Of a stretch of 64,000 bases of DNA, positions 60,859 to 64,000 are shown in pieces. A model generated the notes under the pieces. The model searched no databases, was not told the origin of the DNA, and saw only the letters and a list, made by a program, of their open reading frames with translations. The stretch lies in contig CAJUCX010000003.1 of the NCBI GenBank assembly GCA_910585195.1, forward strand, positions 1,828 through 65,827. The letters run 5' to 3'. Position 1 is the first letter of the stretch. Each line of letters starts with the position of its first letter. This stretch comes from an uncultured Christensenellaceae bacterium (GTDB taxonomy: Bacteria; Bacillota; Clostridia; Christensenellales; CAG-314). The translations under genes and the position numbers were made by a program.

Positions 60859-62106
60859 TCAAAGATTTTCGTTTTGTATCAAAGGTTTTTCGCCCTTATA
60901 AAGCAGTTTCAAAAGCAAAGGGGCTGCAAGTGCGGATATAACCACCAACAGCAATACAAACGGCATAATGGCAGGGGAAACAAGACCGTTGTCCAAACCT
61001 TTTTGCGTGCAGACTATTACAACTTCGGCGCGCACCATCATACCTATGCCTACGCGCAAACTGTCTTTGATGCCGTATTTGCACATCAACGCGCCTGCGC
61101 CGCAGCCCAAAACCTTGCCGAGAAGTCCTGCCGCGATAAACGCCAACCCAAAGCCCGCCATTTGCGCGGTAATGCCCGAGAAGTTTGCCGTAATGCCTAT
61201 GTTTGCAAAAAACACGGGAGCAAAAATCATATAGTTGCTTACTTCTATTTTACGGTCGATGTACTCGTGTTCTTTTACGGTAGAGAGCACAAGTCCCGCA
61301 ACGTAAGCGCCCGTTATGTCTGCAACGCCAAACCATTTTTCCGCAGCGTAAGCAAAAAAGAAGCATATGGCAAAGCCTATTATCGGCAATCTGCGCGTAT
61401 GCGGCGCGCGCTTTTCTACGTAGTTCATAAGGAAGTGCAAGCCGACGCCCAACACTGCCGCAACTGCAAAAAAGCCAAACATTTTAAGTATTATTATACC
61501 GATGTTTCCCGCTCCGCCACCGCTGCCGAGACTTATAAACAGCGACAGTAAAATTATGCCTATTACGTCGTCCATTATTGCCGCGGCAATTATGGAAGTG
61601 CCGACTTTTGAGTTGAGTTTGCCAAGTTCTTTAAGAGTGGCAACGGTTACGCTTACAGACGTTGCCGAGAGAATCGTACCGTAAAACAAGTTTGGTATCA
61701 AGTTTTCGCTTAAATTTTCAAAACCGCCGTTAAACAGCGTCGCAACCAAAAAGCCCAACCCCAACGGGACTATTACGCCAAGCAAAGTTATAACCACCGA
61801 CGGCAGGCCGCAGGACTTAAACTGCTTTAAGTCGGTTTCTATCCCTGCAGAAAACATTATTAAAATTACGCCGATTTTTGCTATAAAAGAAAGTCCGCTC
61901 AACGCGTCGTCGGTGAAAACGGTTTGCTCGGGTATAAGGTTTATCAACCCCAGCAATATGCCTGCTACAATCATACCGACAACCTGCGGCAAACCCATTT
62001 TTTTGCCGATTAGCGCAAATATTTTTGCAAACAGCAAAATGAGCGCCAACGGCAGCAAAACTTCAAAATAAGATACTGTTTCCGAAATCGATAACAATTT
62101 TGTCAT
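60859..62106 (-). CDS. Cation:proton antiporter (CPA2 / Kef-type Na+/H+ exchanger family)
   Basis: Start set at MTKLLSISE (ATG 62106), which follows GGAGA. Polytopic, with the typical GLPQVVGMIVAGILLG N-terminal helix pair. Confidence 0.85.
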   Translation of the reverse strand: MTKLLSISETVSYFEVLLPLALILLFAKIFALIGKKMGLPQVVGMIVAGILLGLINLIPEQTVFTDDALSGLSFIAKIGVILIMFSAGIETDLKQFKSCGLPSVVITLLGVIVPLGLGFLVATLFNGGFENLSENLIPNLFYGTILSATSVSVTVATLKELGKLNSKVGTSIIAAAIMDDVIGIILLSLFISLGSGGGAGNIGIIILKMFGFFAVAAVLGVGLHFLMNYVEKRAPHTRRLPIIGFAICFFFAYAAEKWFGVADITGAYVAGLVLSTVKEHEYIDRKIEVSNYMIFAPVFFANIGITANFSGITAQMAGFGLAFIAAGLLGKVLGCGAGALMCKYGIKDSLRVGIGMMVRAEVVIVCTQKGLDNGLVSPAIMPFVLLLVVISALAAPLLLKLLYKGEKPLIQNENL

Positions 62107-62290
62107 AAAACATCTCCACGATTTTTTGTTATACTCTTTTGCTTTTGTTAAGTCAAGTGTTTTTTTATTCTTGTATCTTCTTATTTTATTTAATTGCAAA
62201 TCCGCCTTTTCAAAGCAAAAACGTTGCACTGTAATATTTATTAAGCACCGCCGTAAAATTGCATAAACGCTGTATAAAACCGTAATAACT

Positions 62291-62324
62291 AAAAAACCCG
62301 ACGAAATTTTTCGTCGGGTTTTTG
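62291..62324. terminator. Bidirectional terminator
   Basis: A6-CCCGACGA-6 nt-TCGTCGGG-T5. Confidence 0.75.
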
Positions 62325-62339
62325 TTCTTGTTTGTTATA

Positions 62340-62780
62340 TTATTTTCTTTTCAAAACAAGTCTTGCTTTTACGGCAACACCGTTTTCGGTTGTGTTGGTT
62401 TCATAAACAAGCTTGCCGTCCTTATATTCGAGATAAGGTACGGTGTCGCTTATATCACCGACGTCTTCGCCTTCGGTTTTGAATGTAAGTTTGTTGTCCT
62501 TAAATTCATAAGTGCCTGTTACCGTTTCGCTTGAAGCAGTTCCGCCCAATTCAGGAATGCCGGCCATAGAAAGCGTCATTGAGAAAGTATTGTCGTCTTT
62601 GAGAGATACGGAAACATCCATTCCCATTTCTTTCATATCAACTTCAATGCCCGCAGTGCTGGAAGTAAATTCTTCCAAGGTCCAATCGCCTACAACAGAC
62701 GTTCCGCCGCATGCTGCAAATGAAAACAACGCAACAAGCGTCAATGCCAAAACAGCAAAAAGTTTACTGAATTTTTTCAT
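62340..62780 (-). CDS. Lipoprotein (lipocalin-like beta-rich domain)
   Basis: 146 aa. Signal peptide with the lipobox LFSFAAC-GG. AGGGGGA ribosome-binding site. Confidence 0.7.
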   Translation of the reverse strand: MKKFSKLFAVLALTLVALFSFAACGGTSVVGDWTLEEFTSSTAGIEVDMKEMGMDVSVSLKDDNTFSMTLSMAGIPELGGTASSETVTGTYEFKDNKLTFKTEGEDVGDISDTVPYLEYKDGKLVYETNTTENGVAVKARLVLKRK

Positions 62781-62810
62781 AAGTATTTCCCCCTTTAAGT
62801 GGTTTTCCTA

Positions 62811-62840
62811 ATTTTATCACTGGGGGGGGGGGGCTGTCAA
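62811..62840 (-). promoter_or_regulatory. Promoter of the lipoprotein gene with a homopolymeric spacer
   Basis: The minus strand reads TTGACA - G C12 AGTGA - TAAAAT. The spacer is 18 nt, and TGA directly precedes the -10, giving an extended -10 TGnTAAAAT. Confidence 0.55.
62822..62833. repeat. G12 / C12 homopolymeric tract
   Basis: Twelve consecutive G on the plus strand, counted directly from the sequence. Confidence 0.95.
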
Positions 62841-63147
62841 TATCTTTGAACCCACAAAATGTGAAAAAGTTTGCCGAAAATCGAACAACGCAAGCCACCC
62901 GCCCCGCAATAAAGCATGTTGCAATTCGATATAAATTGCCCTATAAAAGCAAGTTGAGACAGTTGGCTGTCTGACAGTTTACAAACGCACGGCGGAGTAA
63001 TTATGCGATTTTTACTAAGATGTTTTTTGTTAAAGTAAGTTGCGGAATAATATTAACGGAAATCTAAGCAATAAAAAAAGAGCGTTGCCGCTCTTTTTAG
63101 TGTAACAAAAAAGTAAGGCGTTTGACCTTACTTTTTATTGTTTTAAG

Positions 63148-63777
63148 TTATGCTTTTGTAAAAACCCATTTGCCTGCGTTTGTTTCTCTTACCAAAGAGT
63201 CGCCGCCCAAAAACGGTACGCTTAGTTGATAGTCGCCTGCAAGCAATGCAAGAGGACTTGTACCTGCCGACAACGTTACAACGCCGCCCTCATACGTCCA
63301 AGTGCCGCTCATAGTTATAGACGCTGCTCTGCTTGCGCGGGTTTCTCCGCCTTCGCCTTCTCCTCCCGTTTCTCCGCCGGTTTCTCCGCCTGTGTTGCCT
63401 TCGTCGTCGGAGCCGCCCGTGTTACCCGCGTCTCTCGGTTCAAAAGTCATGGTGTACGCGCCGGAGCCGTTTTCTGCATTATATTTGTTGAGTGTCAACG
63501 TAAGTTTGCCGTTTGCGTCGCTCAAACTTATATCGGCGCCGCCGAGGTTGATTGTTCCTTCGGTGAGTTCCCACTTGCCTTGCGCATAGTTTGGGTTAGG
63601 CGGCATACCGTTGTTTACAAAAAACAGTACAAGCAATGCGATGTCTATTACCAAAAGAACAGCAAAGAGGATGATAAAAAAGTTTAAGATAGGATGCTTC
63701 TTCTTTTCCTGTTCATAAGGGTTGGCAGGATTGACGCCGGGAACTTCATTTTTATTTTTTTTATCTTTCTTCCCCAT
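63148..63777 (-). CDS. Membrane-anchored protein with a Gly/Glu/Thr-rich low-complexity insert; distant paralogue-like of the neighbouring lipoprotein
   Basis: Start set at MGKKDKKNK (ATG 63777), which follows AGGTGA. One TM helix. GKWELTEGT resembles GDWTLEEFT of the 62340-62780 product. The insert reads GGSDDEGNTGGETGGETGGEGEGGET. Confidence 0.55.
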   Translation of the reverse strand: MGKKDKKNKNEVPGVNPANPYEQEKKKHPILNFFIILFAVLLVIDIALLVLFFVNNGMPPNPNYAQGKWELTEGTINLGGADISLSDANGKLTLTLNKYNAENGSGAYTMTFEPRDAGNTGGSDDEGNTGGETGGETGGEGEGGETRASRAASITMSGTWTYEGGVVTLSAGTSPLALLAGDYQLSVPFLGGDSLVRETNAGKWVFTKA

Positions 63778-64000
63778 AATTTCACCTATATACAAAAATA
63801 TTAGTACAGTTATTATATACCTTTTTGCAACAATTTTCAATATTATATGCAAAGTTTTTTTCGATTAAACTGCAAATATAGGCATTTTTTTGTTTATTCG
63901 GGGCTAAGTTTAATATTACTAAGGCCTGCCTCTGAATATTTTTGTTCAAAAAACAATGCAAAAGAAAGCGAGATAAATAAAACCCAATGGCTTTTGCCAC

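Follow-up and report, generated by a model that had tools for sequence, protein, structure and literature searches.

A C12 homopolymer occupies most of the -35/-10 spacer of a lipoprotein promoter in the window (the whole 64,000-nt stretch of DNA that was analysed), and its length differs between assemblies that are otherwise nearly identical. At the level of assemblies the tract is hypervariable, and it is probably a hypermutable contingency locus that acts as a transcriptional phase or volume switch of the porA/opc type. The anatomy of the promoter and the length polymorphism among assemblies support the phase-variation reading put forward in an earlier note on this DNA; we infer that the promoter is used, that expression depends on tract length and that switching takes place within clonal populations.

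A homopolymer makes up most of a promoter spacer

On the minus strand, positions 62840-62811 read TTGACA-g-C12-agtga-TAAAAT, with a spacer of 18 nt, and a consensus promoter scan gave this site a score of 11/12 with a TG preceding the -10. The earlier note had described a -35/-10 pair with the tract as its 18-nt spacer, followed by AGGGGGA and an ATG at 62780; the promoter proved accurate in every detail, and the downstream elements lie where it placed them (AGGGGGA at 62794-62788). The features of the locus are as follows.

62835..62840, minus strand: -35 hexamer TTGACA, perfect consensus, from the promoter scan
62822..62833, minus strand: C12 homopolymer (G12 on the plus strand), 12 of the 18 spacer positions
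62834 and 62821-62817, minus strand: remainder of the spacer, g and agtga, respectively
62811..62819, minus strand: extended -10, composed of TG (62819-62818), a, and TAAAAT (62816-62811)
62788..62794, minus strand: ribosome-binding site AGGGGGA, 16 nt past the -10 and 7 nt before the ATG
62340..62780, minus strand: lipoprotein gene, an open reading frame of 146 aa with signal peptide, lipobox (LFSFAA-C23) and lipocalin-like domain
62292..62323, minus strand: intrinsic terminator, 14-bp stem and T run, ending the single-gene unit of the lipoprotein
63075..63098, minus strand: terminator of the upstream gene, which encodes a 209-aa membrane-anchored protein

From the position of the -10, transcription is predicted to start near 62804, which would give a leader of ~24 nt. 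The promoter scan found no second promoter-like site on the same strand between the terminator at 63098-63075 and the ATG, and an Rfam search of 62000-64000 gave no match near the gathering score, hence no riboswitch or leader. Since the gene is bounded by terminators at 62323-62292 and 63098-63075, the tract promoter drives a single-gene unit, which the terminator at 63075-63098 shields from read-through. About 130 nt upstream of the -35, at window positions 62950-62980 on the minus strand, lies the palindrome CTGTCAGACAG, with CCAACTGTCTC after it. Nine of the ten other assemblies described below conserve CTGTCAGACAG, which has diverged in L054; it may be a candidate regulator-binding site or a hairpin.

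The N-terminus of the 146-aa protein, MKKFSKLFAVLALTLVALFSFAACGG, is a signal peptide with a lipobox. The signal peptide closes with a lipobox, MKKFSKLFAVLALTLVALFSFAA-C23-GG, that fits the L-[AS]-[GA]-C pattern as judged by eye, and the protein is a predicted signal peptidase II substrate. Residues 30-125 match Pfam Lipocalin_4 (PF13648) with 26.6 bits against a gathering cut-off of 22.4 (E 1.1e-5); a sequence search of the PDB returned no relative of the lipoprotein. The upstream gene (63148-63777) encodes a 209-aa protein with a Gly/Glu/Thr-rich insert. It had been taken for a related membrane-anchored protein: the membrane anchor holds, and the kinship is marginal only (BLASTP E 0.009, 27% identity over 67 aa). 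This gene has its own tract-free promoter, TTGAAA-17-TATAAT (63840-63812), and its own terminator; thus, the tract switch controls one gene.

Tract length varies between near-identical assemblies

An exact-protein look-up of the lipoprotein retrieved ten further assemblies that carry the tract: the NCBI MAGs GCA_948984165.1 and GCA_948949305.1, six from ENA, one JGI metagenome and one from Logan. All ten have the tract inside contigs, with identical unique flanks. A flank-anchored pattern scan of metagenome contigs gave no match, although the tract-bearing JGI contig (L048) exists. The lengths over the 11 assemblies are C11 in three, C12 in one, C13 in one, C14 in three, C16 in two and C6-T-C6 in one, where several ENA assemblies are 4-8x Illumina and their long-homopolymer consensus may be off by ~1 base.

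Window: C12
L047: C13
L055: C14
L049: C16
L050 and L051: C14 each
L052 and L053: C11 each
L048 (JGI contig): C11, with TTTACA as -35
L056: C16, with the -10 region replaced by actgaaacaattatag
L054: C6-T-C6

Comparison of tract lengths among strains and metagenomes, which the earlier note had called for, was therefore positive, with C11-C16 in 11 assemblies. The closest assemblies show the variation most directly. BLASTN alignment of L047 with the window contig spans 6441 nt with 0 mismatches and one 1-nt gap, that of L055 4624 nt with 0 mismatches and one 2-nt gap, and that of L049 4606 nt with 3 mismatches and one 4-nt gap; each gap falls at the tract. These three assemblies thus contribute 15.7 kb of near-identical sequence with 3 substitutions and 3 indels, every indel being at the tract. 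Two pairs of ENA assemblies from neighbouring accessions share a haplotype, and each pair agrees in length (L050/L051, 14; L052/L053, 11), which argues that the lengths are reproducible and not random assembly noise. The T7 run of the upstream terminator varies only between haplotypes that have diverged by ~2%, never inside one haplotype.

Outside the tract, the -35 TTGACA is kept in nine of the ten other assemblies, the exception being L048 (TTTACA). The T interruption in L054 should stabilise a 19-nt spacer, and in both L054 and L056 the switch looks locked or decayed.

A proposed spacer-length switch

Promoters recognised by sigma-70 or sigma-A are functional with a spacer of 17 +/- 1 nt, and with a longer spacer the -35 no longer lies in register. 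Where the -10 is extended, weak transcription can proceed independently of the -35. In the mechanism that we propose, slipped-strand mispairing during replication would add C:G pairs to the tract or remove them, and each gain or loss would alter the distance between the TTGACA -35 and the extended -10, TGaTAAAAT. By arithmetic, C11 gives a spacer of 17 nt, C12 18, C13 19, C14 20 and C16 22 nt, and the observed lengths shift the spacer in and out of the functional range. An uninterrupted tract with a 17-18-nt spacer is found in only 4/11 assemblies, one of which is L048 with its weakened -35.

C11, at the 17-nt optimum, would give high expression, and C12, the length in this genome, would give somewhat lower expression and still be active. 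With C13-C16 (19-22 nt) the -35 would be out of register, leaving at most weak transcription from the extended -10. The amount of one small lipocalin-like surface lipoprotein would then vary stochastically, either on/off or by degrees, in a heritable and reversible way. The extended -10 may leave the gene partly on at every length, which would make the tract a dial, not a switch. With mismatch repair intact, the tract may switch less often than those of Campylobacter or Helicobacter.

Nine long tracts in one small genome

The genome of the window is a draft of 1.36 Mb with 41% G+C in 16 contigs. It contains 279 G/C runs of length 5 and 8 of length 6, none of lengths 7-9, and 9 of lengths 10-18. 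Such a bimodal distribution of run lengths is far beyond chance and is what contingency tracts under selection classically produce. The nine tracts of at least 10 comprise four in promoter spacers (that of the window included), one at a ribosome-binding site, three intragenic and one intergenic. The eight tracts other than that of the window are listed here.

C5:367: TTGACT-G12-caatgt-TAAAAT with a spacer of 18 nt; the gene that follows encodes a membrane protein with weak similarity to DUF2207_C
C1:354575: TTGACT-ttttgct-G12-TACAAT, 19-nt spacer, before a 448-aa lipoprotein
C2:6138: TTGACA-atttcact-G15-TATAAT, 23-nt spacer; downstream of it an ABC-transporter operon has another promoter, which carries no tract
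C8:14036: G13 in ribosome-binding-site position, with 3 nt between it and the ATG of a gene of AbrB/MazE type
C13:22659: intragenic G18 in a Big_3 lipoprotein gene, immediately behind the Cys of the lipobox
C1:106620: G13 splitting a DinG-like defence gene (helicase), now out of frame, intragenic
C4:1428: in-frame G10 in a sodium:neurotransmitter-type symporter-like gene (assigned by eye), intragenic
C15:2636: a run of 13 C after a HaeII-type restriction gene

Two of the intragenic tracts disrupt reading frames. The G18 at C13:22659 leaves the mature lipoprotein out of frame, and G17 or G20 restores it; at C1:106620, positions 201-674 of the PADLOC PprDinG model lie in one frame and positions 675-922 in the other.

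Sister tracts vary as well. All four sister loci that could be compared across assemblies differ in tract length: the ABC-transporter promoter tract occurs as G8, G11, G13, G15 and G18, the AbrB ribosome-binding-site tract as G10-G15, the promoter tract at C5:367 as G12 and G13, and the intragenic tract of the Big_3 lipoprotein as G18 and G19. An exact-protein look-up of the 448-aa lipoprotein (C1:354575) found no record, and a look-up through the neighbour of the DinG-like gene yielded one short contig only. In other assemblies the contigs frequently break off at the sister tracts, or contain Ns or junk there, which fits both heterogeneity and technical difficulty. Taken together, the nine tracts are likely to form a multi-locus phasome that acts mostly on envelope proteins and a defence gene. 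A mobile promoter cassette was considered as the source of the tract promoters and rejected: the four in this genome have only the hexamers in common.

Three open reading frames (C1:353078-354424, C13:22624-23646 and C4:2025-2900) share a C-terminal region with a GG(A/V)WC-x-NT motif, in which no Pfam match is found. Two of the three are tract-controlled lipoproteins. On the basis of the shared motif, these proteins may be a paralogous family of variable surface proteins.

Tract promoters recur across the family

The nearest named relatives are "uncultured Christensenella sp." MAGs (MGBC series), Firmicutes bacterium CAG:475 and Candidatus Limadaptatus. The pattern TTGAC-N1-9-G10 occurs as ~80 distinct tracts in 33 of 82 family genomes, compared with 0 for a reversed control; the poly-C version, which has the orientation of the window tract, is much rarer (9 tracts vs 3 in the control). 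In a sample of 35 distinct promoter-type tracts, the gene that follows encodes a lipobox protein in 11 cases and a protein whose N-terminus carries a membrane or signal segment in 12. The spacers of the 35 have a mode of 18 nt, and 21/35 fall within 16-19 nt. Because the family promoters share only the hexamers, they represent a recurrent design and not a mobile cassette.

Two properties of the family tracts stand out. The strand is biased, with G on the sense strand in ~80 promoter tracts vs C in 9, and the commonest spacer, at 18 nt, exceeds the canonical 17 nt by one. Bias and mode may stem from the reduced helical twist of G:C runs or from an effect of the replication strand.

The tract at this particular gene is private to the species. 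DNA and protein searches of 40 relatives found no orthologous locus with a tract, homologues of the lipoprotein in a congener (G004, 48% identity) are tract-free, and among loci in 80 genomes that are syntenic by the Na+/H+ exchanger gene no adjoining tract was present. Since homologous and syntenic loci lack it, the tract is a species-level acquisition at this gene, and the relatives provide no conservation argument for this particular gene.

Genome and family both bear on whether the tract matters for regulation. Runs of 7-9 are absent from this genome, runs of at least 10 are concentrated after TTGAC (the ~80 tracts vs 0 in the reversed control), and the tracts precede envelope-protein genes with spacers that peak at 16-19 nt. 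This positional concentration, together with the spacer peak, is hard to explain without selection for a place inside promoters, and it makes unlikely the reading in which the tract is a mutational hotspot without a part in regulation and its length changes are neutral by-products of slippage, for instance if the extended -10 alone drives transcription. That reading draws on the presence of the TG of the extended -10 and on the commonness of lengths 14 and 16 among assemblies, as if none were strongly selected.

We consider it quite improbable that the tract is real but static in vivo, serving as a fixed structural spacer or protein-binding element, with the differences in length introduced by sequencing, PCR or assembly. 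Errors of this kind are usually +/-1 base and the range of 11-16 far exceeds them; assemblies of the same haplotype repeat their length (14/14 and 11/11), and near-identical assemblies differ at no other homopolymer. The T within the tract of one strain and the rewritten -10 of another are real differences at the same spot. Set against these observations are the low coverage (4-8x) of several ENA assemblies and the contig breaks, N runs, adapter sequence and poly-C junk at sister tracts. An assembly artefact of two-colour Illumina chemistry, to which the earlier note's own caveat on poly-G runs relates, is very improbable here and was rejected: poly-G at contig ends in the relatives G019, G021 and G034 does look artefactual, but the tract lies inside a 131-kb contig between unique flanks and recurs, again with unique flanks, in ten more independent assemblies (NCBI, ENA, JGI and Logan). 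A contingency locus in the promoter spacer thus remains our preferred reading.

Comparison with known contingency loci

Slippage-driven promoter switches are textbook material for a few mucosal pathogens. In Neisseria meningitidis, one-base slippage in the spacers of porA (poly-G) and opc (poly-C) sets the expression of a surface protein at a high or an intermediate level or abolishes it. The locus described here resembles porA and opc in having a G:C homopolymer between -35 and -10, and mismatch repair is present in both. It differs in its host, since Neisseria is a proteobacterial pathogen and our locus belongs to an uncultured, Gram-positive-type member of the Clostridia (Christensenellales-like) that lives as a gut commensal, and in its gene, which encodes a small lipocalin-like lipoprotein behind a promoter with an extended -10. 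The phase-variable gene sets of Neisseria have been reviewed (PMC5953494, PMC5084427).

The unrelated genes that follow tracts in this genome, and the tracts inside coding regions, set it apart from Mycoplasma hyorhinis vlp, which is one paralogous cluster with repeat-encoded size variation. In vlp, poly-A lies in the -35/-10 spacer, and single lipoprotein genes, several per genome, switch independently. The likeness is a spacer homopolymer that precedes individual lipoprotein genes, in an organism of the Firmicutes lineage with a small genome; the homopolymer is poly-A there and G:C here.

The tracts of Treponema pallidum are mostly 7-12 nt long and are positioned around the transcription start or upstream of it. 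At tpr genes and tp0126 of this organism, variable poly-G in or near promoters modulates the transcription of envelope genes (PMC7864442). Our locus shares with these a tract of variable length at the promoter of an envelope-protein gene; unlike in T. pallidum, a pathogen of another phylum, the tract lies strictly within a consensus sigma-A-type spacer.

The poly-G phasomes of Campylobacter jejuni and Helicobacter are characterised by bimodal run lengths and a few dozen or fewer long G/C tracts, which serve as contingency loci, in a small genome (PMC8355987, PMC2823697). The genome analysed here is likewise small, with a bimodal genome-wide distribution of G/C run lengths. Tracts in Campylobacter and Helicobacter are mostly intragenic and the organisms have no MutS/MutL, whereas here 4/9 tracts are in promoter spacers and mutS and mutL are intact.

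No account of such switches in Christensenellales or gut Clostridia turned up in full-text literature searches; the gut-commensal literature that was searched deals mainly with invertible promoters (invertons) and epigenetic phase variation. The locus is a further case of a known mechanism, in a lineage for which we found no published description. As an example from a gut commensal it is well supported: several length alleles are known, and near-identical strains differ by no indel other than the tract. If expression tracks length, strain-level metagenomics of these abundant uncultured bacteria overlooks a layer of surface variation that is relevant to IgA, phage and host. There is also a practical side: such tracts break short-read assemblies and yield apparent pseudogenes, as with the out-of-frame Big_3 lipoprotein and DinG-like gene.

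Mismatch repair, PolC and the replication strand

The locus is of interest chiefly for a phasome that spans the lineage and may be connected with an unusual replisome. As a tentative idea, the lineage, a family of small-genome gut Clostridia that is without full-length PolC and retains mismatch repair, might possess a promoter-spacer phasome in which G-run promoters, not invertons, are the main randomiser of envelope and defence genes, and a DnaE-only replisome perhaps eases both the origin of tracts and their slippage.

Loss of mismatch repair was rejected as the cause of the tracts in this genome because mutS (963 bits) and mutL (495 bits) are intact, both being open frames without stops. 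Among the sampled relatives, tracts are most numerous (~14) in G024, a 97%-complete genome with no detectable mutS or mutL. In G021, with ~9 tracts, mutS is split into two frames at model position 540, and G006 and G010 are without mutS.

Full-length PolC is absent from 25/25 sampled family genomes and from five other relatives; what remains in the PolC-less genomes is DnaE and a PolC-exonuclease fragment of ~520 aa. Tracts of at least 10 number ~60 in 30 PolC-less genomes vs ~5 in 11 PolC-bearing genomes of the order, an association that is a lead only, as the PolC-less genomes are essentially one clade and the comparison is phylogenetically confounded.

All nine G runs of this genome, the window tract included, lie on the strand of positive GC skew. 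A consistent leading-strand location of the G run was not established as a rule: it holds for 9/9 tracts here and 19/29 in relatives (20-kb skew windows). The skew minimum of this genome is near C3:50 kb, and the lipoprotein gene is oriented head-on to replication.
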